From Chloroflexota bacterium (GTDB lineage: Bacteria > Chloroflexota > Dehalococcoidia > Lucifugimonadales > JACPCL1): a stretch of 64,000 nt of DNA. A program made the translations under genes and the position numbers. This document shows, in pieces, positions 8,020 to 60,973 of this stretch. The stretch covers positions 13,916 through 77,915 of the forward strand of contig JACPCL010000036.1 in assembly GCA_016179765.1 (NCBI GenBank), read 5' to 3'. The notes beneath the pieces are model-generated. The model did not search any database, had not been told where the DNA came from, and saw only the letters and a list, made by a program, of their open reading frames with translations. The stretch's first letter is position 1, and each line of letters starts with the position of its first letter.

Positions 8020-8138
8020 CTTTAGCAGGGTGCTGAAAAGGAGTGTCCAGAGTCCCGACAGGTCGGGACTCTGGCGGGGGTCTGGGGGTGTCCCCCAGAT
8101 ACAAATCAATCCGCCGTAGGCGGATACCTTGAACCCCC
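8020..8138. repeat. Rep-B modular repeat
   Basis: Sequence: CTTTAGCAGGGTGCTGAAAAGGAGTGTCCAGAGTCCCGACAGGTCGGGACTCTGG..GGGGGTCTGGGGGTGTCCCCCAGATACAAA..TCCGCCGTAGGCGGATACCTTGAACCCCC. Confidence 0.85.
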
Positions 8139-8983
8139 ACGACCTGGGGGGCCGCGTGGATGGCACTGGCGCCTCCACGGGCCCTGCCGATACCCTGGTG
8201 GCCGAGATACGCGCCGCCGGCGGCAAGGCCGTTCCCAACTACGACTCCGTCGCTACGATGGAAGGCGCCCAGAACATGGTGAAGGCCGCCCTGGACCACT
8301 TTGGCAACGTGGATATCCTGTGCCATGTGGCGGGTATCTTGCGGGACCGCATGGTGTTCAACATGGCGGAGGAGGAGTGGGACGCGGTGCTGCGGGTGCA
8401 CCTGTACGGCGCCTTCCACATGGTGCGTAACGTCGTGCCCCACATGATCAAGCAGCGATACGGACGCATCGTCATCTTCTCCTCGGGCTCCGGCCTGGGC
8501 AACTCCGGCCAGGCCAACTACGCCTCCGCCAAGGAGGGGCAGGTGGGCTTCTGCCGTGCCCTGGCCCGAGAGTTGGCCCCCTACGGCATCACCGTCAACG
8601 CCGTCTATCCCGGCGGCGACACGCGTATGACCCAGGGCATCCCAGACACCGCTCGCGAGATTCGCGCCCAGCGCGGCATCACCGCACGCCAGCAAGAGGT
8701 GCGGGAGGTGGAGAACCCCCGTGACCCAAACCGCAACGGCCCCAAGGTCGTCTACCTGTGTACCGAGGCCGCGGGCAACATCACCGGCCAGGTCGTCGGC
8801 ACCTCAGGGCTGCCCATGACTCTCTATTCGCCGCGCCACGTCTCCCGCGTCATCCACAAGGATGGACGCTGGACCCTGGACGAACTGGAGGTGCTGATGG
8901 GCAGCTCCATTACCCAGGGCATTCCCAACCCAGCGCCGGCGGCCCCGCCTCCTCAGCCCGCACCCACCGGCGCCCGGGCGTAA
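8129..8983 (+). CDS. SDR-family paralog lacking the N-terminal NAD(P)-binding Gly-rich motif (5'-truncated, possibly a pseudogene)
   Basis: Aligns to the upstream SDR from DLGGRVDGTGAS onward and keeps NYASAKEG and the PG motif. Its TTG start lies inside the Rep-B copy. Confidence 0.65.
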   Translation: MNPHDLGGRVDGTGASTGPADTLVAEIRAAGGKAVPNYDSVATMEGAQNMVKAALDHFGNVDILCHVAGILRDRMVFNMAEEEWDAVLRVHLYGAFHMVRNVVPHMIKQRYGRIVIFSSGSGLGNSGQANYASAKEGQVGFCRALARELAPYGITVNAVYPGGDTRMTQGIPDTAREIRAQRGITARQQEVREVENPRDPNRNGPKVVYLCTEAAGNITGQVVGTSGLPMTLYSPRHVSRVIHKDGRWTLDELEVLMGSSITQGIPNPAPAAPPPQPAPTGARA

Positions 8984-15528: not shown

Positions 15529-15787
15529 CCTAGCAGGCTGCGGAAAGGAAAAAGGGGGGTCCAGAGAGGGCTAAGCCCCCTCTGGCGGGGGACTGGGGGT
15601 GTCCCCCAGAGATACCCACTTAAGGCTTGCCCTCTCCATAACACGCGCTAAGGGGGGTCCAGCGGGGCAAAGCCCCGGAGCCTGCCCTGGTGAGCCGAAG
15701 CCCTGAACAACGTGAAGGGGCAGCGAAAGGGCGGGGGTCTGGGGGTGTCCCCCAGATACAAAGTCATCCCCGAAGGGGATGACTTTT
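15529..15787. repeat. Rep-B modular repeat, two tandem units
   Basis: CCTAGCAGGCTGCGGAAAGGAAAAAGGGGGGTCCAGAGAGGGCTAAGCCCCCTCTGG..GGGGGACTGGGGGTGTCCCCCAGAGATA, then a second unit GGGGGGTCCAGCGGGGCAAAGCCCC..GGGGGTCTGGGGGTGTCCCCCAGATACAAAGTCATCCCCGAAGGGGATGAC. Confidence 0.85.
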
Positions 15788-15878
15788 CCGAAGGCCTCCC
15801 GCCCAGAACGTGATACAGTATAGCGACGCCACCAAAGGACCGCGTCCGCAGGCATCTTACCGCACAGGAGCAGAGGGT

Positions 15879-16280
15879 ATGCCCTACGAGTTCAACCACG
15901 TGCACCTGAAAGCCTCCGATCCCAAGAAGACCGCCGACTGGTACGTTCAGGCCTTCAACTTCCGCATCCTCAGTGACACCGTGCGCCCCGTGGGCGACCG
16001 GTTCATTCGCTGCCAGACGGCGGACGGCGTCGGCGTCAACATCTCCGGCGCCCGCTCTGGGGAGCACCTGGACCCAGGCAACGCCAATGCCCACTGGGGC
16101 ATTGAACACTTCGGCGTGAACGTGGGGGATATGGAGGCGGAGATCCGGCGGCTGGTGGGCCTGGGCGCCAAGCTCCTGGAAGGGCCGAGCGGCAATCCGG
16201 GAGAGCTGCGCATCGCCTTTATCAAAGGCCCCGACGACACCCGCATTGAGCTCCTGCAACAGCCGCCCAGCCGGAGCTAG
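15879..16280 (+). CDS. VOC family protein (paralog of 10132..10503)
   Basis: ATG 15879 inside track ORF 15810..16280. FNHVHLKASDPKKTADWY...GIEHFGV. Confidence 0.8.
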   Translation: MPYEFNHVHLKASDPKKTADWYVQAFNFRILSDTVRPVGDRFIRCQTADGVGVNISGARSGEHLDPGNANAHWGIEHFGVNVGDMEAEIRRLVGLGAKLLEGPSGNPGELRIAFIKGPDDTRIELLQQPPSRS

Positions 16281-17735: not shown

Positions 17736-18761
17736 CTAGGGTACCATTGGTGTGGGAGAGGGGAATGGAGTCTCCGCCTCATGGGGAGAAGTCTTGGTAT
17801 GCAGGTGCAAGGCCGCATGGAAGAGTATGGCTGCCAGAGGCGGTGAGCCTTTCGGAGAGGTTGCTGCGGCTGCCAACACATGCACAAAGGCGGGGTCCAG
17901 AACCACCTTGTTGTGCTCCGGGAGCAGCACAACCGGGCAAGAGCCCATATCATGAGTGTGACTGAGATCTAGCCAAAGCTGTTGATGGTACACGACTCCC
18001 TCCAGGTTGTTTTGAATCTTTGATTCCTCCTGAAGGTAGAGCAGTGCCTGAAAAATGGCAGAAAAATCCTCCAGATAACCGCTCACAACCACGTACCCGC
18101 GGCCCTGTTGGTCTTTGGATACGTCCTTAGCAACATCTTCAAGGACGCTGGTGTAGAATCTCTGAGCCGTGTCCCCGTGATAGACGACAGAGCTGATCCC
18201 ACCCGAGAAACGTGCCGCAGGGCACTGGTCTACGTTGAGAGCATTCCAATCAGGCTCGCTTGGAAGAGCGCGCTCGCCTTGGGAGGGATGAGAGGCCACG
18301 TCGGGGATGTCCTCCATTCGCCTGATAGTATGTAACGCCTTACATTCAGGACGTTCCCCTTTGAATGGTGAAACAGAGTACCACTCTCCTACTCGTATCT
18401 TCTCCTCTTGAATACACACGTTCAGCGGCAGACGATAGGGAAGTATGACATCGCGCAACGGGTCTGGAGAGGGGGCCACCGACAACCAGATGTTAACTCG
18501 CCTCCACAGGTCAACAATCAGGCTTGATGGCACACCCCCCAGCGGCGTCGGCGTTGGTGAGGGCGCAGGCGCCGTAGTAGTGGTTGGTGTTGCTGCAGGG
18601 ACTACAAAAGGCGTATAGGTAGGATAGGGTGTGTATGTTGGATAAGGCGTGTGCGTGGGATAAGGAGTGTACGTGGGGTAGGGAGTTGGCGTCGCACCCT
18701 GGCAAGCGGTCACGAACGGTACTAAGAACAGGAGCGCAAACGCTAAGAGACATTGTGCCAC
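17736..18761 (-). CDS. lipoprotein with (T/Y)P(T/Y)-rich tandem repeats, unknown C-terminal domain
   Basis: Lipobox-like signal LLFLVPFVTAC, then TPTPYPTYTPYPTHTPYPTYTPYPTYTPF and a Thr/Pro linker. Lower-GC islet. Confidence 0.6.
   Translation of the reverse strand: MAQCLLAFALLFLVPFVTACQGATPTPYPTYTPYPTHTPYPTYTPYPTYTPFVVPAATPTTTTAPAPSPTPTPLGGVPSSLIVDLWRRVNIWLSVAPSPDPLRDVILPYRLPLNVCIQEEKIRVGEWYSVSPFKGERPECKALHTIRRMEDIPDVASHPSQGERALPSEPDWNALNVDQCPAARFSGGISSVVYHGDTAQRFYTSVLEDVAKDVSKDQQGRGYVVVSGYLEDFSAIFQALLYLQEESKIQNNLEGVVYHQQLWLDLSHTHDMGSCPVVLLPEHNKVVLDPAFVHVLAAAATSPKGSPPLAAILFHAALHLHTKTSPHEAETPFPSPTPMVP
18605..18692. repeat. imperfect 18-bp tandem repeats encoding YPTxTP units
   Basis: About five imperfect 18-nt units on the coding strand of 17736..18761. 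Confidence 0.6.
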
Positions 18762-18937
18762 GGTGTACCCAAGGTCGGAAGCAACGGTAACAGTAGGCCG
18801 TCAGGGATCCCCGCAGGCCTACCATTACTGCCATTATACCTTAGTATGGGTTCTCAAGGTTTTCGAAATGGTATGCTACTGCAGCGGCATACTGGGCGTT
18901 TGGATAGTTAGAGTCATGCTCATACGCCGGCTGTAGT

Positions 18938-19441
18938 TTACTTACTGGTAGGCAACTCCCAGCGCCCCATGATTGCCCCATCTATCTGTTCACCTGTTTG
19001 TGCATCATAGACAACAACCAGTTGGTTCACCGGACGTTCCCCTCTCATGAGCCGGTCAGCGCCTTGTGGGCCTCCTGAGGCACCACCAATGGGCAAGTTG
19101 TCTACGACTACGACCCACACCTCACGGCCTGCCAACGACTCGCCAGTACGCTCGTGCTTGCCCGAATACAGGGCGACCGTTGCTTGCACCTGGAAGGCAT
19201 TCGGATCCACCGTTTCAAAGAAACTAGGTAGCTTTTCACGCACCCGGGCAATGACTTGCGCTCTGGAGACCGCTGGGACAAACGATGCGGGCGCGATCTG
19301 GCTGTTTGCGGGATCAAAAATCGCGCCGATCTCCTTCGTGGTTTCGTTTCGGGGCCCGCTGGGGACGGTAAATGCCAGCATCAAGAGGCCAACCGCTACA
19401 GACCCTAGGAAGGTCAAACCGAGCATCATCCGTGTTGTCAT
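18938..19441 (-). CDS. membrane-anchored protein with PepSY-like domain
   Basis: ATG 19441 (GAAGAGGA upstream) preferred over 19489. TM helix MLGLTFLGSVAVGLLMLAF. ISRAQVIARVRE...VVVYDAQTGEQIDGAIMG fits the PepSY pattern. Confidence 0.5.
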   Translation of the reverse strand: MTTRMMLGLTFLGSVAVGLLMLAFTVPSGPRNETTKEIGAIFDPANSQIAPASFVPAVSRAQVIARVREKLPSFFETVDPNAFQVQATVALYSGKHERTGESLAGREVWVVVVDNLPIGGASGGPQGADRLMRGERPVNQLVVVYDAQTGEQIDGAIMGRWELPTSK

Positions 19442-19508
19442 ATGATGTCCTCTTCTACTGGGTTCACATGGCTGGGTTCTGCGCGACATCCAATGGTTAC
19501 GCTACGTT

Positions 19509-20276
19509 CTATTCAGAGCACCGGGTGTCCCAAATTCGGAATCCTTGGTAGATGAGTTCAACGTCACCGTGCCCTTCCTTGTAGTTGCTCATGGAGGCTG
19601 ACTGCCAACTGTAGGAAGAATCGCGGTACATAACGTTGTCTCCGTGGATCTTATTCGTTGTATCTCCCGGGACATGGTCGCCTTTGTTGGGCGTGTCATA
19701 GTTCAAGGTTTCGCCAAAACTCTGCCACTTGGTCGGAGTCCAGGTTATCGAAACATTCCTGGTAGTTCCGCCATCGTACTGCATTTGGGCCTGGTTGTAC
19801 TCTCCTTGAAGGGGAACAAACATCGTGCTGTACTCTTTGGAACTAGGAGGCTCTGTGTGCGGCGTATCCTGCCAAAGAGCTGTGCTCGTGTTGTACCACT
19901 TGGTTTCCCAATTGCCTCCGCCATTCCAGGAATATTGGCTCCAGACGTACTCCTTGGCTCCGGTTATTCCATCGTACTCCCACCACCCGGTCTGAGCGTA
20001 GTTGCTGCCATCGGTCAGCATTACCCAGAAGCCTGTCGCTTTGTATACGGGGGCCGGATTGTAATTCCAGAGATTTGCCCTTATGCCGGTGATTCCCGAA
20101 ACTGAGTACTGGGCTCCGACCATTTTGTAGACGATTTCGCTGCCCTCGGGCACGGTACATTCCGCAAAGGCGACCGATGGCCTCAGAAATCCTGGCGTCA
20201 ACAGCAATACCAAGGCCATTGCCACGATCGTGCCAACAATCGCTGTCACCCGCGCGGCGAGTTTCACGTTGCTCAT
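19509..20276 (-). CDS. secreted Trp/Tyr-rich hypothetical protein
   Basis: Signal or TM segment AIVGTIVAMALVLLLTP, then an aromatic-rich beta-type sequence. FWVMLTDGSNYAQTGWW weakly recalls the WVGxDG...QTG motif of peptidase G1 (speculative). Confidence 0.5.
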   Translation of the reverse strand: MSNVKLAARVTAIVGTIVAMALVLLLTPGFLRPSVAFAECTVPEGSEIVYKMVGAQYSVSGITGIRANLWNYNPAPVYKATGFWVMLTDGSNYAQTGWWEYDGITGAKEYVWSQYSWNGGGNWETKWYNTSTALWQDTPHTEPPSSKEYSTMFVPLQGEYNQAQMQYDGGTTRNVSITWTPTKWQSFGETLNYDTPNKGDHVPGDTTNKIHGDNVMYRDSSYSWQSASMSNYKEGHGDVELIYQGFRIWDTRCSE

Positions 20277-20730: not shown

Positions 20731-20773
20731 CTCCTCCCCCTTCCTTCCTAGGGAAGGGGGTAGGGGGTTAGGT
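20731..20773. repeat. Rep-A palindromic repeat
   Basis: CTCCTCCCCCTTCCTTCCTAGGGAAGGGGGTAGGGGGTTAGGT. Confidence 0.75.
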
Positions 20774-22065: not shown

Positions 22066-22113
22066 CGGTCCGCCTGTGGCGGATGGGGGTGTTTTTCAGC
22101 AGCCCGCTCCTAG
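22066..22113. repeat. Rep-B partial copy (hairpin module plus terminus X)
   Basis: GGTCCGCCTGTGGCGGATGGGGGTGTTTTTCAGCAGCCCGCTCCTAG. Confidence 0.7.
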
Positions 22114-22281: not shown

Positions 22282-23397
22282 CTATCTCCGGTCGCGGCGC
22301 TTCATGGCGGTGTTGCGACGCAAGAAGAGTGGGACATCCAGCTCCTCCTCTCTGGGCTCGCCCCTAACTCCCGCCAGGTCCAGGTGGGATAGGATGAGAT
22401 CGTCGTCCGGGACGGTGGCCGCTACCGCCGGGAAGCCGGTGGCGATGATGGTCACCCGCACCTCGTCCTCCAGGGTGGGGTCTTTGCTCATGCCAAAGAT
22501 GATGGTGGCGTCGGGGTCGGCCACGCTCTCCACCATCTGCGCCGCCTGGTGCACCTCTTGCAGCGTCAGGTCACTGCCCCCGGAGATGCTGAGGAGGATG
22601 CCCTTGGCGCCGTTGATCTGAACGTCCATAAGTGGGCTTTCAATGGCTGCGCGGGTGGCTTCGGTGGCGCGGTTCTCGCCAGAAGCGACGCCCAGGGCCA
22701 TCCAGGCGGTGCCCGCTCCGCTCACCACGGCCTTTACATCAGCGAAGTCCAGGTTGATTTCCCCGGTCTCGGTCACCAGCAGGGCAATGGCCATGACGCC
22801 CTGGCGCAGCACGTCGTCGGCCATCTTGAAAGCATCTTCAGTCGTAACATTAGCGTCGGCCAGCTCCAGGAGGCGTTCGTTCGGGATGACCAAGACGGAG
22901 TCCGCCTTCTCCTTCATGTGCTGGATGCCGTCCTCGGCCTGTTTGTGGCGCTTGTGCCCCTCAAACTTGAAGGGCTTGGTCACGACGCCAATGGTCAGGG
23001 CGCCCGTCTCCTTGGCGATCTCGGTGAGCACCGGGGCCGCCCCCGTGCCTGTTCCGCCCCCCATGCCCGCCGCAACGAACACCATATCTGCGCCCCGCAG
23101 CAACTCGTACAGCTCGTCCCGGTCCTCCTCCGCGGCCTCCCGCCCCAGGTCTGGCTGGCCGCCCACACCTAGGCCGCGGGTCAGCTTTGTGCCGATGGGC
23201 ATCTTGTGAGGCACCACCAGCGTCATCAAGTGCTGGGCATCGGTGTTGATGCAGATGTAGTCTACTCCCGGGATGGGCGAAGCCTGGTACATGCGGTTCA
23301 CGGCGTTGCAACCCCCGCCGCCAACGCCAATCACCTTGATCACCGTCTTGCCATTGGGAGCGGACCTGTTTTCCTGGTCATTCATAGCTGTTGCCAC
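22282..23397 (-). CDS. ftsZ: cell division protein FtsZ
   Basis: GVGGGGCNAV and AAGMGGGTGTGAAPV tubulin signature. Confidence 0.95.
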   Translation of the reverse strand: MATAMNDQENRSAPNGKTVIKVIGVGGGGCNAVNRMYQASPIPGVDYICINTDAQHLMTLVVPHKMPIGTKLTRGLGVGGQPDLGREAAEEDRDELYELLRGADMVFVAAGMGGGTGTGAAPVLTEIAKETGALTIGVVTKPFKFEGHKRHKQAEDGIQHMKEKADSVLVIPNERLLELADANVTTEDAFKMADDVLRQGVMAIALLVTETGEINLDFADVKAVVSGAGTAWMALGVASGENRATEATRAAIESPLMDVQINGAKGILLSISGGSDLTLQEVHQAAQMVESVADPDATIIFGMSKDPTLEDEVRVTIIATGFPAVAATVPDDDLILSHLDLAGVRGEPREEELDVPLFLRRNTAMKRRDRR

Positions 23398-25635: not shown

Positions 25636-26361
25636 ATGAGGATTGACGTGTTCACCCTGTTTCCGGGGATGTTCGGGGGTGTGCTTGGGGAAAGCATCAT
25701 TGGCCGGGCCATGGCCCATGACAGGCTGGAGGTGCGGCTGCACAACTTCCGGGAGCACGCTACGGACCGGCACCACACGGTGGACGACTACCCTTACGGT
25801 GGCGGCCCCGGCATGGTGCTCAAGCCAGAGTCGCTGTTCACCGCGGTGGAGGCAGCCCTGGGCACTCCGCCCTCCTGCCCGGTCATCCTGCTCACCCCCC
25901 AGGGCAAGCCCTTCCAGCAAAAGGATGCGGAGCGCCTGGCCCAGTTCCCGGCCTTTGCCCTGCTGTGCGGCCACTACGGCGGCGTGGACGAGCGCATTCG
26001 GCAGCATCTGGCCACCGAGGAGCTGAGCATCGGCGACTACGTGCTGACGGGGGGCGAGCTGGCCGCCATGGTCGTTATGGACGCCGTGGCCCGGCTGATC
26101 CCCGGCGTGCTGGGGTCTGAGGAGTCCCCTGCGTCAGACTCCCACACCACTGGTCTGCTGCAGTATCCCTTGTACACCCGGCCGCCGGAGTTCCGGGGCT
26201 GGAGTGTGCCAGAGGTGCTGCTTTCCGGTAACCACCAGGCCATCGCCCGCTGGCGGCGGCGGCAGGCCCTCCTGCGCACCCGAGAAAAGCGCCCAGACCT
26301 CCTGGTTAAGGCGGACCTGACCGAAGAGGACAGGCGCTTCCTTAACGAGCAGGAGCCTTAG
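25636..26361 (+). CDS. trmD: tRNA (guanine37-N1)-methyltransferase
   Basis: [29 protein letters not shown] and [13 protein letters not shown] motifs. Confidence 0.95.
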
Positions 26362-26442
26362 CAGGCTGCTGAAAAACACCCCCAAACCCCCGACAGAGAG
26401 GCTTCGCCCCTCTGGACTCCCCTTTCTTCCGCGGCCTATTAG
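26357..26442. repeat. Rep-B short copy (terminus X + hairpin + terminus Y)
   Basis: CTTAGCAGGCTGCTGAAAAACACCCCCAAACCCCC..AGAGAGGCTTCGCCCCTCTGGACTCCCCTTTCTTCCGCGGCCTATTAG. Its first bases contain the trmD stop TAG (26359-26361). Confidence 0.85.
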
Positions 26443-26488
26443 ATTCTTCGGTCGTCCACCTTTGGCGGACTCCCTCGGAATGATAACC

Positions 26489-26538
26489 CGTGAGCATCAA
26501 AAAGCCTGGGCAGTTGCCCAGGCTTTTTGATGCTCACG
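26489..26538. terminator. bidirectional terminator hairpin
   Basis: 24-bp perfect stem CGTGAGCATCAAAAAGCCTGGGCA-gt-TGCCCAGGCTTTTTGATGCTCACG, between convergent trmD and glnA. Confidence 0.75.
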
Positions 26539-26545
26539 TCATCCC

Positions 26546-27985
26546 TTACGCGTCAAAGTACAGGTAGAACTCGTAGGGGTGGGGGCGCAGGCGGACGGGG
26601 TCCAGCTCTCGCGTCCGCTTGTACTCCAGGTAGGTGTCAATGAGGTCCCTGGTGAAGACATCGCCGCGCAGGAGGAAGTCGTGGTCCTTCTCCAGGGCGT
26701 CCAGGGACTCGCCCAGGCTGCCGGGCACCTGCTTCACCCTCCTGGCCTCCTCTGCGGACATCTCGTAGATGTTCACGTCTAGGGGCTCGCCGGGGTCAAT
26801 CTTATTCAGGATGCCATCAATGCCGGCCATGAGCATGGCGGCAAAGGCCAGGTATGGGTTGCAGGTGGGGTCTGGGCAGCGAAACTCCACGCGCTTGGAC
26901 GCCGGCGTGTCAAAGTACATGGGGATGCGGGCGCAGGCGCTGCGGTTGCGGGCGGAGTAGGCCAGGTTGACAGGCGCCTCGTAGCCCGGCACCAGGCGGC
27001 GATAGGAGTTGGTGGTGGGTGCGCAGAGGCCCAGGAGCGCCGGGGCATGCAAAAGCAGGCCGCCAATGTAGTGCTTCATTATGTCACTCATGTTGGCGTA
27101 GCCCTGTCCATAGAACAGGGGCGTGCCCCCCTTCCAGATGCTCTGGTGGGTGTGCATGCCCGTGCCGTTGTCGCCAAAGAGGGGCTTCGGCATAAAGGTG
27201 GCCACCTTGCCGTGCTTCCGGGCGACGTTGCGCAGGGCGTACTTGAACATCATCACGTTGTCAGCCATCTTCACCAGGGAGTCGTACCGCATGTCAATCT
27301 CGCCCTGGCCGGCGGTAGCCACCTCGTGGTGGTGCTTTTCAATGGTGATGCCAAAGTCCTGCATCATCAGCACGGCCTCGGAGCGGATGTCCCCCTGGGT
27401 GTCCGTGGGTGGCGATGGGAAGTAGCCCTCCTTGTAGCGGGGGCGATAGGCCAGGTTCCGGCCGCCCAGCAGAGAGCTGTCCCGGCCGGAGTTCCAGACG
27501 CCTTCGTCGGAGTCAATATAGTAGTAGCCGCTGTTGACGGTCTGGTCAAAGCGGGCGGAGTCAAAGATGAAGAACTCCAGCTCGGGGCCCCAGTAGCTGG
27601 TGTCGCCGATGCCAGAGGACTTCAGAAAGGCCTCCGCCTTCCGGGCGATCCAGCGGGGGTCACGGGAGTAGCTACCACCGGTCGCCGGGTCGCGAACATC
27701 ACAAATAACGCTCAGGGTGGGGATCTCAAAGACCGGGTCTACCACGGCGGTGGTGGAATCGGGTATCAGGAGCATATCGCTCTCCTGGATGGCCTGAAAG
27801 CCCCGGATGCTGGAGCCGTCAAACCCCGTGCCTTTCTCAAAGACTTCCATGTTCAGCTCGCCGATGGGGATGGCAACGTGCTGCATGGTGCCGGGGATAT
27901 CAATAAACTTGAGGTCAACCATCTGGATACCCCTGTCTTTGCACAACTGTAGTACCTGGGCCGGTGTGAGATTTCTGCCCGCCAT
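26546..27985 (-). CDS. glnA: glutamine synthetase, type I
   Basis: [25 protein letters not shown] and [13 protein letters not shown] motifs. 479 aa. Confidence 0.95.
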
Positions 27986-28204
27986 GGCGACGGACTCCTT
28001 TCCTTGTGTTGTCTTTCACAAACTGTGTCAGTGTCAACGAAACGGGCCCCCGTGGTCAAGGGCTCAGGCCTGGGGTTCCACCCTTCCGCCTGCCCTCACA
28101 ACCCTCAAGGGCAGGCACAGAGCCGTCCCTTGCCAGTGGCCCCGGCGTCAATGACGCAACCTGTATAGGTTACCTTCATTCTGACGAAGGCGTGTAGCCT
28201 GGAT

Positions 28205-28231
28205 GTTGCCCTTTTGTTACATCTTTGTTAC
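28205..28231 (-). promoter_or_regulatory. three 11-bp-spaced direct repeats GTAAC/GTAAC/GCAAC upstream of glnA
   Basis: The glnA-sense strand reads GTAAC-aaagat-GTAAC-aaaagg-GCAAC. The repeats lie about 220-246 nt upstream of the glnA ATG. Confidence 0.4.
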
Positions 28232-28269
28232 ATGACAATATGTTCCCTCTCTCGCCCTCCTTCGGCAGG

Positions 28270-28445
28270 CTTAGCAGGCTGCGGAAGAAAGGGGAGTCCA
28301 GAGGGGCGAAGCCCCGGAGCCTGCCATGAACGTAGCCGAAGGGACGGGGGTCTGGGGGTGTCCCCCAGATACAAATCCATCCGCCGCAGGCGGATACCTT
28401 GAACCCCTCGAGGGGGTTTGGGGGTGTTTTTCAGCGCCCTGTTAG
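28270..28445. repeat. Rep-B complete copy (reference copy)
   Basis: CTTAGCAGGCTGCGGAAGAAAGGGGAGTCCAGAGGGGCGAAGCCCC...GGGGGTCTGGGGGTGTCCCCCAGATACAAATCCATCCGCCGCAGGCGGATACCTTGAACCCCTCGAGGGGGTTTGGGGGTGTTTTTCAGCGCCCTGTTAG. Confidence 0.9.
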
Positions 28446-28563
28446 AACGGAGAGAAGGAGGAGACCCCAGACCCTCACCAAATGGGCAAATGCCCCCTCT
28501 GGACGCTCTTTTTGTGCGGCCTGCTCGGGAGAGTCAAAGGGGCTGTTCCTATCATAGCAGGGC

Positions 28564-31698: not shown

Positions 31699-31769
31699 CT
31701 CTCCGTGCGGAAAGGGAGAGCGATTCTCCCCCTTCCCGCACGGGAAGGGGGAGCCAGAGGGGATTAGGT
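31699..31769. repeat. Rep-A palindromic repeat (two hairpins plus GGGGATTAGGT tail)
   Basis: CTCTCCGTGCGGAAAGGGAGAG..CTCCCCCTTCCCGCACGGGAAGGGGGAGCCAGAGGGGATTAGGT. Confidence 0.8.
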
Positions 31770-34182: not shown

Positions 34183-34389
34183 CAGACCTCTCCTGGCGTT
34201 GGGTTGCGCGGTAGGCACAAGTCTAGTACGCCTACCTGGGGGAGTCAACGGGCGCGGAAGAGCAACAACTCGGACAAGGCATCGTCCATCCTTTGCTGAT
34301 GGCAACCCGTTGTAGTAGTATTGCTGGCAGCGTCACTCTGTGTTGCGACTTTGCGCGACATTCAACAAAGAGGGTCAGAGATAACAAAA

Positions 34390-35430
34390 ATGAACGCTCC
34401 TGGATTACCTCGTTTTATCTTCCTTGGTGCGAAGCGCCCGGAATTACGTCTAATGGACGACGCAGGCGAGCAACTTCCTTACAGTTTGACCAACATCAAC
34501 GTGTACACTACCTCTGGTGACTTAACAGGAGAGCCTGGTACCCTTAGCTTGGCCAATCTGCTTCGGGGTACAGGGGGAATCATAGGATGGGGGCTAATAG
34601 ACCACTACCGATTGCCAAACTGCTACCTTTGCCTTTCAGGTCGTAGAGTGTGTCCGATGCTTGTCGATAAGGTGGAGGAAACAGCGTATGGCCCAGATAT
34701 TACTAAGGAAGTTGCAGTGCGAAAATTGAGGCTGAAGATGCATGAAAGGCCTCAATTAGAGAAATGTAATACTCTTAAGGTTTTGCTCGAACTTTCCCAA
34801 ACAGGACCCGAGAAACAACTCTTTTCCATGTATTGCGAAGCAGTAATCTCAGGGATAGACCTTAGACAGGTATCAGCCTACGATTTTGAATTTACTGTCC
34901 TTCAAGAGAGTTCCCTTGTGCACCAATACGGCAGCTTGTGGGAAGCGAAACTGCTGAACCTTCCTGCAAGTAGTCGTTCACCATCTGCCCTTACCGCCGC
35001 CATGCTGAATTCACTCGGCCAGCCGGCACTCTTGCCTCAATATTGGCTTGATTGGACCTATGATCCCAAGGCTCCCTCTCATTCCTTGCCCAGACCAACG
35101 CTAGATATGCCAACTAGGATTGACTTTTTTGCTTTTCGGAATGGGAAGCGCATGGCAATTGAAGTAGATGGCCCTGAGCATTATGCCAATTTTGATAGGC
35201 AGAATGGCAAATACGTTCTTAGTGAAGAGGTATATGCCAAAAACCTTAGAATAGATAGATCTATGCGTTTTCAGGGTTGGAAAATACATAGAGTGAGCAA
35301 TTGGGAGGTAAATGCCCAGCCTAACCGGGCATTGGCTGACCTAGCGGATGCCCTGGAATTACCCCTTGAAGGCTGGGGGGTTGAACCATTGCTTCCTGGC
35401 TTGCCAGACATAAGAGACTTGCCGTTTTGA
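34390..35430 (+). CDS. hypothetical protein with C-terminal DUF559/Vsr-like PD-(D/E)xK nuclease domain
   Basis: C-terminus RIDFFAFRNGKRMAIEVDGPEHY...RIDRSMRFQGWKIHRVSNWEV. The N-terminal ~250 aa were not recognised. Clearly lower-GC islet. ATG 34390 preferred to 34321. Confidence 0.55.
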   Translation: MNAPGLPRFIFLGAKRPELRLMDDAGEQLPYSLTNINVYTTSGDLTGEPGTLSLANLLRGTGGIIGWGLIDHYRLPNCYLCLSGRRVCPMLVDKVEETAYGPDITKEVAVRKLRLKMHERPQLEKCNTLKVLLELSQTGPEKQLFSMYCEAVISGIDLRQVSAYDFEFTVLQESSLVHQYGSLWEAKLLNLPASSRSPSALTAAMLNSLGQPALLPQYWLDWTYDPKAPSHSLPRPTLDMPTRIDFFAFRNGKRMAIEVDGPEHYANFDRQNGKYVLSEEVYAKNLRIDRSMRFQGWKIHRVSNWEVNAQPNRALADLADALELPLEGWGVEPLLPGLPDIRDLPF

Positions 35431-35800: not shown

Positions 35801-36994
35801 CTACCCCACCACCCACCCGTACCCTATCCCTAGCGCGCCTCCTCCCGCCACCAGCCACGCCGAGTTGAGGCGCGTGCGGAACACAAGTACCGTCGCTACC
35901 AAGGCCAGCACGATAGTGAAGGGGTCTATGATGGAGGCGCGGCCAAGCTGCAAGGCCACGCCCCCCATGAGGGCCAGGGACGCCACATTCACGCCGTCCA
36001 GGGCAGCGGCGGCCAGAGGCGAACGCCGCACCAGGGGCAGGATGCGGCTCAGGAGCGCAACGAAGACAAAGGCCGGCAGAAAGATGCCCACCGTCGCCAG
36101 GAGAGCCGCCGGCAGCCCGCCCACCACGTACCCCACAAAGGTAGCGGTGGTCAGCACCGGCCCCGGGGTGAACTGGCCGATGGCTATGGCGTCCAGAAGC
36201 TGCTGGTCCGTCAGCCAGCCCAAGCGGTCCACGAAGTCGCCGCGCAGGAAGGCCAGCAATACGTACCCGCTGCCATACAGCACGGAGCCGATCTTGAGGA
36301 AGTTCAGGAAGAGCGTCAGCAGGCTATACGGGGCCGCACCGGCGGGCAGCGTTCCCAGGGAGAGGCTGCCTAGCGGAAGCAGCGCAAGGCCCGCCACGCC
36401 CTTCTTGGCCAGACGTTTGCCACCGTAGACCAGCGCCATGACGATGCCGCCTGCGAAGACCAGTAGCACCTCGTTGACGCCCAGTAGGTAGAGGACCAGC
36501 GCCGCAACGCCGGCGGCTGCCAGCACAGGGCCTTTCACGGCGCGCCGTCCCAAGGCCCACAACGCCTGCACTACAACGGCGATAATGACGGGTTTGATGC
36601 CGTACAGGAGCCACTCGGCCTGGGGCGTGCCCCCGTAGCGTACGTAGGCCATGGCCACGGCCAGGACAATGAGCACGGCGGGGGTGATGAACAGCGCGCC
36701 CCCAAGGATGAGGCCCGGCCATCCGGCGCGACGCTTACCCAGGTGAATGGCCATCTCCGTGGAGTTGGGGCCGGGGATAAGGTTGGTGGCCCCGACCATA
36801 TCCAAGAAGTCCTGGTCATCCAGCCATTTGCGGCGGCGCACCACCTCGTCCCGCATCATGGCGATGTGGGCTGCCGGGCCCCCAAAGCCAATGACGCCTA
36901 GCTTCAGGAACAGCCAGGCAACCTCTCTCAAACGCCCCGGGGTTCCTGTGGCGATTGTGGGCCTCCTGAGGTATGTGCCGTAGGGGCGCAGCAC
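35801..36994 (-). CDS. chrA: chromate transporter ChrA
   Basis: Two CHR halves (FLKLGVIGFGGPAAHIAMM.., FLKIGSVLYGSGYVLLAFL..). The annotated GTG start lies inside a Rep-C palindrome, so the start is uncertain. Confidence 0.85.
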   Translation of the reverse strand: MLRPYGTYLRRPTIATGTPGRLREVAWLFLKLGVIGFGGPAAHIAMMRDEVVRRRKWLDDQDFLDMVGATNLIPGPNSTEMAIHLGKRRAGWPGLILGGALFITPAVLIVLAVAMAYVRYGGTPQAEWLLYGIKPVIIAVVVQALWALGRRAVKGPVLAAAGVAALVLYLLGVNEVLLVFAGGIVMALVYGGKRLAKKGVAGLALLPLGSLSLGTLPAGAAPYSLLTLFLNFLKIGSVLYGSGYVLLAFLRGDFVDRLGWLTDQQLLDAIAIGQFTPGPVLTTATFVGYVVGGLPAALLATVGIFLPAFVFVALLSRILPLVRRSPLAAAALDGVNVASLALMGGVALQLGRASIIDPFTIVLALVATVLVFRTRLNSAWLVAGGGALGIGYGWVVG

Positions 36995-37010
36995 GCTGCG
37001 CCCCTACGGC
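36977..37010. repeat. Rep-C palindrome
   Basis: GCCGTAGGGGCGCAGC-ac-GCTGCGCCCCTACGGC, directly downstream of the peroxiredoxin stop. Confidence 0.75.
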
Positions 37011-39221: not shown

Positions 39222-39263
39222 ACCTAACCCCTGTCCCCTTCCCTCATAGGGAAGGGGCAAGAG
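39222..39263. repeat. Rep-A palindromic repeat (inverted orientation)
   Basis: ACCTAACCCCTGTCCCCTTCCCTCATAGGGAAGGGGCAAGAG. Confidence 0.75.
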
Positions 39264-39382
39264 GCCGGAGCAGGCGATGCAGGACAGGAAAGAGCAGGCG
39301 AGGGCAGAGGTGGGGCGAGAGCATCGCAGGCCTTCGCCGATGCCAGTCGTTCAGCGGCAGGCAACTAATGGCGGGCAAAGAG

Positions 39383-40288
39383 TCAGATGGTGTTAGACTG
39401 GCGGCGATTTGCTGGAGCCAGTTGTGGCCCTCTGTAGTTCTCCAGGAACGCCAGGGTATCTTCCTTGGTGGCAAACTTACCCGTGATTTCGTCTTCGTTG
39501 TTGTAGACGATTGAAATCTCGAGACGGACAAGGTGACCATGCACCATGAAATCATCGTAGCTCTTGATGAAAACGATAGCTTCATCCGCCGACTTCCAAG
39601 AAGAAGACACTCCGTGCAGGGGGAGCACTCTAATTGAAGCCACGTAGCGAGTAACGCTGCTTTCAAGGTTTATCATGAAAGCCCGGACTTCTTCATTGTG
39701 GGATTCAAGTAACGCGTTTGCCACCCGGCTACGTTGCCTCGCCGCCAGCCGTTCCCAAGCGGAAACCTTACGCTGGACCTCCGAATCTGGCGTGTCTTCA
39801 TCAAAAGAGGCGTCTATCCTGACTTCCTTGAATGCACTGAGCAGAGAGTCATAAGGGAAATAAAGAACCCGGAACTTTTGGGACTCAAGCTGTCTCAGAG
39901 CGCCTTCAGTGAATACTCCCGCAAGGATCGTACCCAGAAAGGGAGCTGAGCTTTGGTGGGTAGCAGCTAGAGGAAGAATTGCTCCCTGTATTTCCTGCGC
40001 TTTGTTCCGCGAATGCTTGGTGTAACGCCTCCATGCTGTTTCAATGAACGCAACTGGAATGCCTATTTCGGTGGCAGAGCCTCCCCTTTCTAGAACATAG
40101 TCAAGATCATGAATGTTCCCATATGAATCTGTCCAACTCACCTTCCGACCCTTACGTGCAGGTCGGGGTCCTTTCTTGTCCAAAAAGAGGGAGTGTTGCC
40201 GCGCAAAATCAGCCAGAATAGGTTCAATAGCTGTTTCCAACACATCCCCAATGATTTGGCCAAACCTGTGCGCGGGCGATTGCGCCAT
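39383..40288 (-). CDS. probable type II restriction endonuclease (partner of adjacent methyltransferase)
   Basis: 301-aa ORF starting 3 nt after the methyltransferase stop. Lower-GC islet. Possible PD-(D/E)xK-like core around HDLDYVLE...VAFIETAWRRYTKH. Family not recognised. Confidence 0.45.
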   Translation of the reverse strand: MAQSPAHRFGQIIGDVLETAIEPILADFARQHSLFLDKKGPRPARKGRKVSWTDSYGNIHDLDYVLERGGSATEIGIPVAFIETAWRRYTKHSRNKAQEIQGAILPLAATHQSSAPFLGTILAGVFTEGALRQLESQKFRVLYFPYDSLLSAFKEVRIDASFDEDTPDSEVQRKVSAWERLAARQRSRVANALLESHNEEVRAFMINLESSVTRYVASIRVLPLHGVSSSWKSADEAIVFIKSYDDFMVHGHLVRLEISIVYNNEDEITGKFATKEDTLAFLENYRGPQLAPANRRQSNTI

Positions 40289-40291
40289 GAC

Positions 40292-41572
40292 TTAACCCTC
40301 GACCCACAGGCAGCCTTCTTGCAACGGCACTCGGTGCTTGCGATTCTTCCACTTGGTGTTCCTGTCCCTGAGTTTCTCAAAACGGTAAGCCTTAAAGCCC
40401 ACACAAACAGCTAGTTGCCCCATCCACTCTTCAACAGGTACGTGTACTCCGTAGGGGGCAGAGTCTCCCACAACAAAGCATACGGCCGCGTTTTTCCGGC
40501 AAACGCGCCTCAGCGCTTGCCAGACATGGAGCATATCAGCGAAATACGCGGCGATCAGAACATCATACTGCTTCTTGCCCCCGTGGTTGCTCCGTTCTTC
40601 GGCGAGCTGTCCGCAAACAGTTCGAATAGCGCCTTCGAACGGGATTCCATTGAGTTGCGTTAGCATGTCTTCAATTGCGGTTTTCTCAGTAGAGACATGT
40701 TGAGAACAGGACCGTACAAGCCCTTTCCTAGCTTTCTCGTGGAGGTCACCCCAGTCAAGAACTTCACCGAGAAAGGTCATCTCGAGCCTGGTGGCATCAG
40801 CGTAATCATAATTGTTCGCATACGGGGGAGAGGTAACAACCAATCCAACCGATTGGTCTTCAATACCTTCACAAGTTCTAGCGTCCGAGAGGCGGATTTG
40901 CGCACTCGGTTCAGCAACCTGGAGTTGTCGGATACGCATGTCCATGATCATTCTGTTTACCTGAGAGGCGAAGGCATCGTAAGGGCGAGCAACTATAGCT
41001 TTCTCTTGACTAGGTAAGACGTATTGCCAAGGCGCCGTGCCGACGTGAGAGCAGGAACGAAGAATACTCACCAAACAAAGCCAGGCCAATTCCGAAACAG
41101 CGCTATAATCCGCGAGCCGTTCCCACGCCGCCTTTAGAGAGTAAAGATCTCTGATAGCATGCTCTGAGTAACACTTCTCTATGAGACGTGGATACTTGGG
41201 TTCGTGTGCTGGCTCGCGTTTTGCGGCGGTAAGAACACGCTCCGCAAAGTCGGCAAACTCTTCTACCCTCTCGTACCAATTCAGCTTTGCCTTAGCTACC
41301 CGGAGAATGAAGGGTTGTGCCTCTAGCCCTAGGGACCGAACCCCTGCTTCTTCAGCAGCAAGAACTGCCGTTCCTACGCCTGAAAACGGGTCAAGGAATG
41401 TTCCACCATTCAATTCGCCACGATGATCGTGGACAACTGTTCTAACCCATTCAGCAGAGAACCCCGCAGGGAACCTAAACCAACCATGTACAGGTAGCGC
41501 CACATTTCGGATGAAAGTAGATGTCCCGTTCCTTGTGGTGGGATAACTGGCGGCTTGCGTCAAAGCAGGCAT
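40292..41572 (-). CDS. DNA amino-methyltransferase (N4-C or N6-A), SPPY type
   Basis: Motif I-like FLDPFSGVGTAVLAAEEAG (aa 59-77) precedes motif IV VVTSPPYANNYDY (aa 245-257). Followed by YFADMLHVWQALRRVCRKNAAVCFVVGDS. Confidence 0.8.
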   Translation of the reverse strand: MPALTQAASYPTTRNGTSTFIRNVALPVHGWFRFPAGFSAEWVRTVVHDHRGELNGGTFLDPFSGVGTAVLAAEEAGVRSLGLEAQPFILRVAKAKLNWYERVEEFADFAERVLTAAKREPAHEPKYPRLIEKCYSEHAIRDLYSLKAAWERLADYSAVSELAWLCLVSILRSCSHVGTAPWQYVLPSQEKAIVARPYDAFASQVNRMIMDMRIRQLQVAEPSAQIRLSDARTCEGIEDQSVGLVVTSPPYANNYDYADATRLEMTFLGEVLDWGDLHEKARKGLVRSCSQHVSTEKTAIEDMLTQLNGIPFEGAIRTVCGQLAEERSNHGGKKQYDVLIAAYFADMLHVWQALRRVCRKNAAVCFVVGDSAPYGVHVPVEEWMGQLAVCVGFKAYRFEKLRDRNTKWKNRKHRVPLQEGCLWVEG

Positions 41573-41705: not shown

Positions 41706-41813
41706 ATGGCGGCAGACCGGCGGATAAATAGGCGGGTGTACGAGGTGTACGGTCTTACTACTGCGGAACGGCGGCTGGTGGGGGGGACGCAGGTTGTCCG
41801 AAGGCCCCTGTAG
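41706..41813 (+). pseudogene. remnant resembling the C-terminal tail of type IIG/Eco57I-like R-M enzymes
   Basis: 35-codon ORF MAADRRINRRVYEVYGLTTAERRLVGG... recalls the ...IDRLVYELYGLTEEEIxIVEG tail. No upstream body is present. Confidence 0.3.
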
Positions 41814-41842
41814 GGGCGCAGCATGCTGCGCCCCTACAGGGG
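41805..41842. repeat. Rep-C palindrome (perfect)
   Basis: CCCCTGTAGGGGCGCAGCATGCTGCGCCCCTACAGGGG. Confidence 0.8.
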
Positions 41843-41845
41843 TTT

Positions 41846-41930
41846 CACCCTTACCCCTTTGCCCTGATGAATCGGGTACTCAGGGCAAGCTCCGTATCCT
41901 TCCCTGTCAAGGGGGAAGGAGGATTTGGTC
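41846..41930. repeat. Rep-A composite repeat
   Basis: TTGCCCTGA...TCAGGGCAA hairpin plus CCTTCCCTGTCAAGGGGGAAGGAGGATTTGGTCA. Abuts the nfo stop codon. Confidence 0.7.
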
Positions 41931-42860: not shown

Positions 42861-42905
42861 GCAAACCCCTCTCTTATCAAGGGAAGGGGGTTTGGAAGGG
42901 GTTCC
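42861..42905. repeat. Rep-A palindromic repeat
   Basis: GCAAACCCCTCTCTTATCAAGGGAAGGGGGTTTGGAAGGGGTTCC. Confidence 0.65.
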
Positions 42906-48678: not shown

Positions 48679-48757
48679 TGAGGTGGATGTCTGCGACCGC
48701 ACCCTGATGGTCTTCAACCAAATACTATTGCTTCCGTAAGCAGGACTTTACCCCCTA

Positions 48758-48832
48758 TCCACCCCTTCCCCCGCAAGGGGGGAAGGGGTGGGCTTCCTCC
48801 CCCTTGACGGGGGAGGATTGAGGTAGGGGTGA
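48758..48832. repeat. Rep-A two-arm copy
   Basis: CACCCCTTCCCCCGCAAGGGGGGAAGGGGTG..CCTCCCCCTTGACGGGGGAGGATTGAGGTAGGGGTG. Confidence 0.8.
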
Positions 48833-48950
48833 AACCCTCCGCTCATTACAAAATAAGCTATTTCGTTCATGACCTGAAGCGTGTGGCAATGGGTTTATAA
48901 GCCAACCCGTGAACGGGGCGGTGTCCTTCGCCGCCCATCCAGTACCTCCC

Positions 48951-51886: not shown

Positions 51887-52005
51887 TCCTGGTGTTTAGA
51901 GCGAGGTGGCACCACCCGTTCCCATCCCGAACACGGAAGTGAAACGCCTCAGCGCTGACGATATTGTGCCCGCGAGGGTATGGGAAAATAGGCCATCGCC
52001 AGGAC
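51887..52005 (+). rRNA. rrf: 5S ribosomal RNA
   Basis: UCCUGGUG...CCCAUCCCGAACACGGAAGUGAAACGCCUCAGCGCUGA...CGCCAGGA matches the bacterial 5S consensus, and helix I closes between the two ends. Confidence 0.85.
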
Positions 52006-52006
52006 T

Positions 52007-52051
52007 CACGAGGCTCTTGGCATGAAGCTTGTGCCAAGAGCCTCGTGTTTT
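52007..52051 (+). terminator. intrinsic terminator after 5S rRNA
   Basis: CACGAGGCTCTTGGCA-tgaagctt-TGCCAAGAGCCTCGTG followed by TTTT. Confidence 0.75.
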
Positions 52052-52133: not shown

Positions 52134-52284
52134 CCTAACAGGCTGCTGAAAAACACCTTTAGACCATCCCCCTTGCCCCCTTTCTGGAAGGAAGGGGGCA
52201 GATTTTGTATCTGAGGGACACCCTCAGACTCCCGGCAGAGGGGCAAAGCCCCTCTGGACTCCCCTTCTTTCATCAGCCTTCTAG
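52134..52284. repeat. Rep-B copy with a nested Rep-A hairpin
   Basis: CCTAACAGGCTGCTGAAAAACACC..CCCCCTTGCCCCCTTTCTGGAAGGAAGGGGGCAG..TTTGTATCTGAGGGACACCCTCAGA..AGAGGGGCAAAGCCCCTCTGGACTCCCCTTCTTTCATCAGCCTTCTAG. Its end contains the fic stop codon. Confidence 0.85.
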
Positions 52285-53510: not shown

Positions 53511-53542
53511 TTGAACGTGGTGTTTTTAGTAGCCGCTGGTAG
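53511..53542. repeat. degenerate Rep-B terminus X (inverted relative to 52134)
   Basis: TTGAACGTGGTGTTTTTAGTAGCCGCTGGTAG, compared with CCTTGAACCCC..GGGGGTGTTTTTCAGCGCCCTGTTAG. Confidence 0.5.
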
Positions 53543-60845: not shown

Positions 60846-60973
60846 AAGGTATCCCCTTCGGGGATTGATTTGTATCTGGGGGACACCCCCAGACCCCCGC
60901 CCCTTCGCTACCACTCAGGACAGGCTCCGAGGTTTCGCCCCTCTGAACTCCCCTTTTTTCAGCAGCCTCTTAG
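60846..60973. repeat. Rep-B copy (inverted orientation)
   Basis: AAGGTATCCCCTTCGGGGATTGATTTGTATCTGGGGGACACCCCCAGACCCCC..GGTTTCGCCCCTCTGAACTCCCCTTTTTTCAGCAGCCTCTTAG. Confidence 0.85.

Follow-up and report, generated by a model that had tools for sequence, protein, structure and literature searches.

Rep-B, a modular MITE family with a three-hairpin interior in Dehalococcoidia genomes

Introduction

The Dehalococcoidia, which abound in groundwater, sediments and the deep ocean, are bacteria that for the most part have not been cultured. Small mobile repeats are known from other organisms: the Correia elements (NEMIS) of Neisseria are ~100-155 bp long, with inverted ends of ~20-26 bp and size classes that differ by internal deletion, and they lie in intergenic sequence near genes, duplicate a TA and give rise to transcripts that fold into stable hairpins. 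The Tourist MITEs of the PIF/Harbinger superfamily are distant eukaryotic analogues. The small noncoding repeats (SNRs) of Deinococcus radiodurans are mosaic, GC-rich, hairpin-bearing intergenic repeats of 60-200 bp. Mention of these SNRs is found in PMC1978522, and the REP superfamilies of proteobacteria are described in PMC3733652. REPs are palindromic sequences of 20-40 bp that carry a GTAG/CGTC tag, are linked to RAYT genes and have neither terminal inverted repeats (TIRs) nor a target duplication. Bacterial MITEs derived from IS5-family insertion sequences include BrickBuilt/MITE293 of Porphyromonas gingivalis and ATR of Neisseria, and IS5-family TIRs are exemplified by GAGACCTTTGCAAAA (PMC4596501); for IS5 itself, a duplicated CTAG tetranucleotide is reported (PMC10379815).

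Here we describe Rep-B, a repeat family that shares features with each of these systems. Similar to the Correia elements, it combines a comparable unit size with inverted ends, deletion classes and intergenic sites near genes, and its transcripts would likewise fold into stable hairpins; however, it duplicates 4 bp rather than TA, its fold is a cloverleaf where theirs is one long hairpin, and it has no sequence similarity to them. With the SNRs it has in common a mosaic, GC-rich, hairpin-containing and intergenic character in a GC-rich genome, although its exact core occurs in Dehalococcoidia/Chloroflexi MAGs, with none in Deinococcus among the matches listed. As in REP/BIME repeats, short GC-rich palindromic modules form mosaics in both orientations at extragenic positions near 3' ends, where Rep-B might likewise stabilise or terminate transcripts, but Rep-B has TIRs and a target-site duplication (TSD), and no RAYT was present among the ORFs scanned. 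The IS5-derived MITEs are similar in being small and non-coding, in having TIRs and a short TA-centred duplication, and in being scattered through intergenic sequence in many copies, deletion derivatives among them. Unlike them, Rep-B has as its interior a conserved three-hairpin cassette instead of remnants of IS ends, its hosts are uncultured Dehalococcoidia, and its canonical ends, CAGGGTGCTGAAAAAGG, are only putatively IS-derived. Its density of ~9-10 pieces in 64 kb compares with the 10-20 copies per genome typical of bacteria (PMC4596501). In full-text searches of the literature we came across no description of the family, nothing on small mobile repeats of Dehalococcoidia, and nothing relevant on Dehalococcoidia/Chloroflexi MITEs or on the core sequence; Rep-B is a genuine MITE family, previously undescribed, of a well-known element class.

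Results

The window, by which we mean the whole 64-kb stretch of DNA analysed here, has a G+C content of ~62% and contains housekeeping genes, with genes for an S1 protein, a ClpB-like ATPase and a NAPRTase along with ftsZ, trmD, glnA and tilS, as well as a lone 5S rRNA gene and a tRNA-Gly gene. A 30-mer core, GGGGGTCTGGGGGTGTCCCCCAGATACAAA, is found exactly at 8076(+), 15733(+), 28346(+) and 60869(-), and with three mismatches, among them a compensatory G>A/C>T stem pair, at 52204(-), where dinucleotide shuffles give an expectation of 0 core matches. The terminus CTTAGCAGGCTGC is repeated at 8021, 15529, 26357, 28270 and 52134, and a general repeat search of the window linked the sites in both orientations, with 28276-28382 being 86% complementary to 60862-60968 over 107 nt. 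We built an HMM from 12 canonical copies of genomes other than that of the window and a covariance model (CM) from 51 copies, and both the HMM (searched with nhmmer) and the CM recover seven copies in the window, all at CM E<=3e-6. In total the window contains 9 pieces at 7 sites, listed here together with one doubtful stretch:

52135-52284, minus strand: full-length copy of canonical form, 150 bp (nhmmer positions 2-149, E=2e-32; CM 122.7 bits, E=1e-27)
28271-28445, plus strand: full-length variant, 175 bp (nhmmer positions 1-149, E=2e-18; CM E=6e-8)
28459-28525, minus strand: degenerate partial copy, from left TIR to core (nhmmer positions 3-69, E=2e-5)
26358-26442, minus strand: 85-bp internal-deletion derivative (nhmmer positions 2-73; CM E=4e-7)
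8022-8138, plus strand: right-truncated copy (nhmmer positions 1-90, E=1e-14; CM E=2e-9)
15530-15617, plus strand: partial copy (nhmmer positions 2-78, E=3e-13; CM E=8e-8)
15650-15790, plus strand: another partial copy, sharing its site with 15530-15617 (nhmmer positions 18-89, E=4e-8; CM E=3e-6)
60846-60973, minus strand: copy without the right TIR (nhmmer positions 2-89, E=8e-16; CM E=2e-6)
22066-22113, plus strand: right-end fragment (19/19 match to GGGGTGTTTTTCAGCAGCC, 0.01 expected; match to the hairpin pattern)
53511-53542, plus strand: doubtful, only a loose right-TIR likeness, membership unsupported

The canonical Rep-B unit, taken from the HMM consensus of the 12 clean copies from other genomes with the flanks of the core lined up, is 149 bp long, and TIRs of ~19 bp, CAGGGTGCTGAAAAAGGGG, enclose three hairpins. 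Its left part runs from YTAR through CAGGGTGCTGAAAAAGGGGA, hairpin A (GTCCAGAGGGGCGAAGCCCCTTTGGC) and GGGGG to hairpin B (TCTGGGGGTGTCCCCCAGA), and its right part consists of a spacer, hairpin C (ACCCCCTTCCTGGYCAGGAAGGGGG), a G-rich tail, TTTTTCAxCACCCTG and YTAR. In full, and set between a CTAG at either end, the consensus reads CAGGGTGCTGAAAAAGGGGA-GTCCAGAGGGGCGAAGCCCCTTTGGC-GGGGG-TCTGGGGGTGTCCCCCAGATAC-AATTTTC-ACCCCCTTCCTGGCCAGGAAGGGGGT-AGGGGGGATGGTCGAAAGGG-TTTTTCATCACCCTG. Across the 16 pairs of helix 1, the canonical ends pair with CCTTTTTCAxCACCCTG in 89% of cells. Either single strand yields a cloverleaf in which the TIRs form the closing stem and the three hairpins lie inside, at energies of -66 to -75 kcal/mol and z = -3.2 to -5.6. 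At the tip of hairpin A sits a GNA-type triloop (GAA, GGA or GCA; occasionally AAA). Mean identity is 85% among 51 aligned, distinct full copies, with the hairpin stems conserved at 93-97% versus 89% for the TIRs and 73-86% for loops and spacers. Stem cells remain paired at 93.6%, double changes are seen at 12 pairs and are more numerous than in the shuffled and slid controls, and the covariation score, 0.093, lies above every one of these controls, although related sequences without structure can exceed such controls as well. Flanks and termini of three or more further kinds accompany the exact core, in a sample that was selected for the exact core. We note separately that stem conservation above that of the TIRs is not obviously predicted for a purely selfish, decaying element.

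Against this layout, the copy at 52135-52284 is complete, with left TIR, hairpin A with its GNA-type triloop, a core hairpin B that carries the compensatory A-T pair, hairpin C and right TIR, flanking 4-mers CTAG and TTAG (in element orientation), and a cloverleaf of -68.7 kcal/mol (z=-3.2). The variant at 28271-28445 is flanked by TTAG at 28271-28274 and at 28442-28445, has an insertion of ~30 nt, GGAGCCTGCCATGAACGTAGCCGAAGGGAC, between hairpins A and B, a module that is also present in copies of other MAGs, and possesses ATCCGCCGCAGGCGGAT plus CCCCTCGAGGGGG in place of hairpin C. Tail to tail with it lies the degenerate copy at 28459-28525. The 85-bp derivative at 26358-26442, with TTAG at 26358-26361 and at 26439-26442, keeps both TIRs and hairpin A without hairpins B and C, and is linked to the 175-bp variant by inverted-repeat pairs (I4 and I7). 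The right-truncated copy at 8022-8138 consists of TTAG, left TIR, a hairpin A with substituted apex (GTCCCGACAGGTCGGGAC), the exact core and the hairpin ATCCGCCGTAGGCGGAT; it has no right TIR, and its end coincides with the start of a 5'-truncated SDR gene (8129-8983). At 15530-15617, CTAG, the left TIR and hairpin A precede a core that differs by T>A (GGGGGACTGGGGG) and by an inserted GA (CCCCCAGAGATAC), whereas the copy at 15650-15790 has no left TIR and proceeds from hairpin A through a long insertion module, the exact core and the hairpin GTCATCCCCGAAGGGGATGAC to TTTT. The copy at 60846-60973 is composed of CTAA, left TIR, hairpin A, the insertion module, the exact core and the hairpin ATCCCCGAAGGGGAT, and is situated between a CTAG holding the stop codon of gene 59085-60839 and the stop codon of a glycerate kinase gene (60989). 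Finally, the fragment at 22066-22113, downstream of ftsZ (22282-23397, minus strand), comprises the hairpin TCCGCCTGTGGCGGA of the form TCCGCC-nnn-GGCGGA, the right TIR GGGGGTGTTTTTCAGCAGCC and a CTAG at 22110-22113.

These structures bear on a sequence-only reading of the window, which had listed eight intergenic sites. Seven of them hold significant copies or fragments, among them 22066-22113, whose membership is upheld by its 19/19 right-end match together with its hairpin; the eighth, 53511-53542, drops out, having no nhmmer or CM match and no 19-mer right-end match at <=3 mismatches. What had been taken as one copy at 15529-15787 is really two partial ones, and the copy at 28459-28525 was absent from that list. 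The two termini it named X and Y are, as it proposed, imperfect inverted copies of each other: Y combines hairpin A with the left TIR, and X is the right TIR on the other strand, in the form of this genome's own subfamily. Its hairpin-forming core is hairpin B of the 149-bp unit and its last module is hairpin C in this genome's version. Full copies had been estimated at 85-180 bp with terminal inverted repeats, and those observed measure 85, 150 and 175 bp (window copies overall spanning 85-175 bp). Rep-B has no coding capacity, and ORFs through its copies are short read-throughs only, such as the spurious (M)YLGDTPRPPP at 60870, which is present as described. Since the insertion module and the substituted hairpin-A apex of the window copies recur in copies of other MAGs, modularity is a property of the family, and the shuffling of modules reflects internal deletions of the element, replacement of hairpin apices and insertion of the ~30-nt module, and truncation through adjacent deletions.

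The flanking 4-mers of full copies conform to YTAR (CTAG, TTAG or CTAA; n=53), and 27 of the 53 have one and the same 4-mer on both sides. CTAG on both sides is the commonest pair, while other like pairs are TTAG/TTAG (6 copies), CTAA/CTAA (6) and GTAG/GTAG (1); the inverted combination TTAG/CTAA occurs in 0 of the 53. Among the 42 copies with a central TA, position 1 matches between left and right as CC in 27 and TT in 7, with 4 discordant (Fisher p=7e-5), and position 4 as GG in 28 and AA in 6, with 6 discordant (p=1.2e-3). Under an inverted-repeat model the two flanks are not associated (p=1), and the duplication stops at 4 bp, with no match at the fifth base. The flanks thus match as direct repeats, which indicates a 4-bp TSD and, with it, transposition.

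Many copies adjoin the stop codons of genes, and at 10 of 56 gene-proximal ends the duplicated target itself supplies the stop codon through its TAG or TAA. In the window, the stop codon of trmD (25636-26361) is the TAG at 26359-26361 in the TTAG flank of the 85-bp derivative, the Fic-family gene 52281-53432(-) has its TAG stop (52281-52283) inside CTAG 52281-52284, and the stop codon of gene 59085-60839 lies within the CTAG beside the copy at 60846-60973. Where the target triplet TAG or TAA is itself a stop codon, insertion would regenerate the stop, so insertion of a YTAR-specific element at this position would be harmless; this may explain why copies so frequently sit exactly at stop codons with the gene intact, as YTAR is presumably rare elsewhere in these GC-rich genomes. 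In tandem spacers, 17 copies have the same orientation as the flanking genes and 13 the opposite (crude ORF calls). Convergent spacers account for 25% versus 18% in the background and divergent ones for 17% versus 16%, with no clear excess or deficit given the crude gene calls. The cloverleaf could possibly stabilise or terminate neighbouring 3' ends. As to intrinsic terminators, no stem of the canonical unit runs straight into a series of T, and a simple scan flags only the right end of the 175-bp variant (28397-28423 plus GTGTTTTTCA), so we set this reading aside. In Rfam, only 5S rRNA and tRNA reach the gathering score in the whole window, and a search over the canonical copy (E<=10) has a best match of E=0.037, below threshold.

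At orthologous positions we surveyed 80 glnA loci of relatives (63-76% protein identity) and found the element at 2 of them, in both cases downstream of glnA, ~150 nt from its stop codon, and belonging to different subfamilies; thus the element is not a conserved glnA-linked RNA. In the window itself glnA is bracketed by two copies in inverted orientation. The spacer between two SDR genes holds a copy in the window and also a variant, CTAG-flanked copy in L055, a locus of the E14 MAG from a different species. This could reflect old shared ancestry rather than recent movement, although the L055 element has another start position and other modules than the window copy, so that independent insertion is as likely.

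Scanning one genome per species (species representatives) for the exact 22-mer TCTGGGGGTGTCCCCCAGATAC gave at least 103 stretches. Among the matches listed, all come from MAGs labelled Dehalococcoidia, Dehalococcoidales or Chloroflexi, at least 19 in number, whose sources include groundwater, the Black Sea and Lake Baikal, so that this host range is a minimum; our first guess from GC content and mosaic appearance, the SNR repeats of Deinococcus, was dropped on this result. In ~700 kb of carrier loci from these MAGs, nhmmer finds 158 non-overlapping copies. With core and target left out, copies are 89% identical inside one MAG versus 79% across MAGs, which points to genome-specific subfamilies and amplification inside lineages, and the maximum of 97% speaks against a very recent burst. 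Copies are found on viral contigs as well: one IMG/VR phage contig has three copies around a gene with a weak, sub-threshold match to a terminase domain, which is adjoined by genes for portal, capsid and adaptor proteins. One near-complete copy lies on another IMG/VR contig. Among three additional viral scans, the one with a hairpin-A 17-mer gave chance matches only. The element therefore also enters phage genomes, and phages are a plausible route for Rep-B between hosts.

We looked for an autonomous partner and for empty sites. As the sequence-only reading had stated, no transposase was found in the window, neither by a Pfam search of 30 ORFs nor by a second search, with NCBIfam, of 10 ORFs (8 Pfam-negative ORFs of the 30, plus 34321-35430, which has a weak sub-threshold Pfam match, and 15648-16259), a scan that left out ~30 shorter or housekeeping-like ORFs; no Y1 transposase or RAYT was present among the window ORFs scanned. 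Searches of the window and of the ~700 kb of carrier loci for solo TIRs and for TIR pairs 0.3-4 kb apart revealed no autonomous element, nor did a search for split left and right halves or for long repeats common to the loci, and no IS-like repeat is common to the carrier loci. The only candidates for such a partner turned out to be MITE pairs around ordinary genes, namely an SDR gene (L088) and glnA (window). Flank-to-flank BLAST among all loci identified no empty site, its sole match being the occupied SDR-SDR spacer of L055. An exact-protein look-up retrieved short-read contigs from several samples encoding trmD, Fic, NAPRTase and SDR1, with no empty allele among them, and returned no contig for glnA, for which the nearest relative among metagenome loci has 76% identity or less. 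The trmD, Fic, NAPRTase and SDR1 contigs all end a few dozen bases into the repeat; such breaks indicate that the repeat is multi-copy in this genome and are silent on polymorphism.

Discussion

Taken together, the TIRs, the 4-bp direct duplication and the dispersed copies suggest that Rep-B is, in all likelihood, a non-coding, transposon-derived MITE family that a DDE-type transposase, encoded at another site, mobilises in trans. Such a transposase would bind the inverted ends and cut YTAR with a 4-bp stagger. The MITE-like reading first proposed for the window is thereby borne out, both by the YTAR direct repeat with its left/right co-variation, which answers the proposed search for target-site duplications, and by further copies in at least 19 other genomes and on IMG/VR viral contigs. 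Two of its other suggestions fare worse. Active or recently active movement finds no direct support: copies of the same genome are ~89% identical (97% at most), window copies are mostly truncated or rearranged, and the short-read contigs include no empty site. The structured-RNA family offered as an alternative finds little support, there being no Rfam match and no orientation bias, with the element absent at 78 of 80 glnA loci, though the unusually strong conservation of the hairpins makes some structural constraint conceivable. Because the 4-bp YTAR duplication is like that reported for IS5, the partner may be an element of the IS5 family, a proposal on which we are evenly divided. The diverged subfamily of L081, L088 and L187 has the ends GAGACTGCTGAAAAA, and these bear a loose resemblance (GAGAC...AAAA) to the IS5-family TIR cited above.

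The conservation of the hairpins leads to another way of viewing Rep-B, in which a structured element, as RNA or as single-stranded DNA, is selected by the host as a 3'-end stabiliser, a terminator or, in the manner of REP/BIME units, a site of protein binding, and transposition is a mere means of its spread. We consider this unlikely. The stems do outconserve TIRs, loops and spacers, their pairing is maintained with 12 double changes and a covariation score above controls, the exact core is joined to several kinds of flanks and termini (in the exact-core-selected sample), numerous copies adjoin stop codons, and the G-U pairs of the consensus (columns 32-51 and 60-81, helix 4) pair on the G-rich strand only. 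However, orientation shows no bias to transcription, neither convergent nor divergent spacers shift beyond background, no Rfam family corresponds, and the canonical unit has no stem with an immediate T-run. Moreover, truncation and rearrangement occur freely among the window copies, related unstructured sequences can exceed the covariation controls, and repair can also keep palindromes symmetrical. A more specific form of this idea, that the three-hairpin cassette (the GNA-triloop hairpin A, TCTGGGGGTGTCCCCCAGA and hairpin C) is under purifying selection and has been captured by several kinds of transposon ends, appears to us decidedly unlikely, and in that event the cassette could serve as an orientation-independent 3'-end stabiliser or insulator, or as a site for a host or transposon protein. 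We keep a functional cassette as a minority hypothesis on account of the stem conservation, the pairing and the occurrence of the core with several termini.

It is highly improbable that Rep-B is instead a TA-duplicating MITE of the IS630/Tc1-mariner type, similar to the Correia elements, in which the outer C and G of CTAG belong to the target and no 4-bp duplication exists. CTAG on both sides is indeed the commonest flank, and ends of the form G-CAGG...CCTG-C would lengthen the inverted repeat by one base, but the left/right co-variation of positions 1 and 4 (p=7e-5 and 1.2e-3) is not predicted by a 2-bp duplication, and TTAG/TTAG and CTAA/CTAA pairs are common. We give next to no credence to an immobile cis-regulator or small-RNA gene at orthologous sites, or to a REP/IS200/IS605-type palindrome moved by a Y1 transposase, a pair of readings that the hairpin-rich element and the SDR-SDR spacer occupied both in the window and in L055 might favour, but that the glnA-locus survey (2 of 80 loci, with different subfamilies) and the direct 4-bp duplication largely refute, together with the TIRs, the differing start position and modules of the L055 element and the copies in a phage, as to our knowledge Y1-transposase elements have neither a direct 4-bp duplication nor TIRs.

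Considered as a MITE family, Rep-B is no new kind of system, with its host range, its cloverleaf interior and its siting at stop codons adding some interest. For those who work with these genomes it has practical consequences, as it breaks short-read assemblies (the population contigs for trmD, Fic, NAPRTase and SDR1 end in copies), gives rise to spurious ORFs and in one instance adjoins the 5'-truncated SDR gene 8129-8983, and a defined Rep-B consensus, HMM or CM would help the annotation and binning of Dehalococcoidia MAGs. Insertion that regenerates the stop codon would be a target preference that allows low-cost spread through a compact genome. Were the cassette indeed under selection, MITEs and phages would be vehicles that spread a regulatory module through Dehalococcoidia genomes, and if its conserved hairpins are functional, Rep-B would be a Chloroflexi counterpart of the REP/BIME or Correia elements.

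Truncated and repeat-flanked genes

Alongside the right-truncated copy of the Rep-B family of short non-coding repeats lies a gene whose start coincides with the element's own boundary:
8129-8983 (+), second of two tandem SDR genes, compared with L055:3281-4243 (-) of the E14 MAG

The point at which this gene is truncated at its 5' end is the exact end of the Rep-B copy. Aligned with the intact 320-aa L055 ortholog the similarity begins only at residue 37 (77% identity), and the glycine-rich NAD(P)-binding motif is missing from the truncated product. The gene is probably a pseudogene produced by a deletion adjoining the Rep-B element.

At 26358-28445 we observe that glnA (26546-27985, -) is flanked by two Rep-B copies in inverted orientation, a layout like that of a composite transposon, and the 4-mers flanking both copies are TTAG in 4/4. 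A bidirectional terminator-like hairpin at 26488-26539 belongs to glnA itself. In a relative's locus (L111, 3740-3960) a candidate cobalamin riboswitch, recognized by eye, lies 3' of glnA and between two element copies.

A further copy, of the canonical form, follows a ribosomal gene:
51888-52004 (+), 5S rRNA gene

This gene is solitary, no 23S or 16S gene being found within the 64-kb window. Directly downstream of it come first a palindrome (52006-52048) and next the canonical Rep-B copy.

Other repeats and low-GC3 ORFs

The Rep-B core hairpin is also found within a different repeat, with ends TTGCACAAAAA...TTTTTGTGCAA (L003, L016, L048, L060; OZ252215.1). The direct repeats flanking it are longer and start with CTAG (CTAGACAC in L048, CTAGTCCCC in L016), and together with the distinct ends this suggests a second element type built on the same core cassette. 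Other palindromes and hairpins occur in the window:
2883-2970, 48746-48837, 61993-62038; also 20731-20767, 31728-31752, 39228-39264, 41892-41921, 42867-42896: second family, short GC-rich palindromes, and solo hairpins
36980-37007 and 41810-41837: 28-nt perfect palindrome GTAGGGGCGCAGCAYGCTGCGCCCCTAC, two occurrences

Members of the second family consist of CCTTCCCCCTTGACGGGGGAAGG then TGAGGATGGGGGTGA, in some cases as inverted pairs, and with the solo hairpins, which are similar to Rep-B hairpin C, they may form a REP-like family akin to the third module of Rep-B. The GTAG...CTAC ends of the 28-nt palindrome resemble the tag of classical REP elements.

Several ORFs stand out by their composition:
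17736-20276, 34321-35430, 39383-41572, 50285-51601: low third-position G+C ORFs

Their third-position G+C is 0.45-0.66, against ~0.8 in neighbours, and most lack a Pfam or NCBIfam match. An N6/N4 DNA methylase lies beside one of them, and for another there is a weak match of restriction-endonuclease type. They are probably horizontally acquired islands, a restriction-modification system among them.

Rep-B in metagenomes and viral contigs

Short-read Logan contigs from the SRR121134xx runs (L104-L106, L193-L200) represent the same population, with 100% identity to the window, and every one of them ends 20-80 nt inside a Rep-B copy. The family is a systematic source of assembly breaks in these metagenomes. 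Copies are also carried on two viral contigs:
L187 (IMGVR_UViG_3300009127_000063), 9-95, 1575-1642 and 2498-2621: three diverged-subfamily copies
L192, 2873-3002: near-complete canonical copy

Portal, capsid and adaptor genes are present on L187, a phage contig, and its three copies surround a gene whose match to a terminase domain is weak. Phages may carry the element from host to host.
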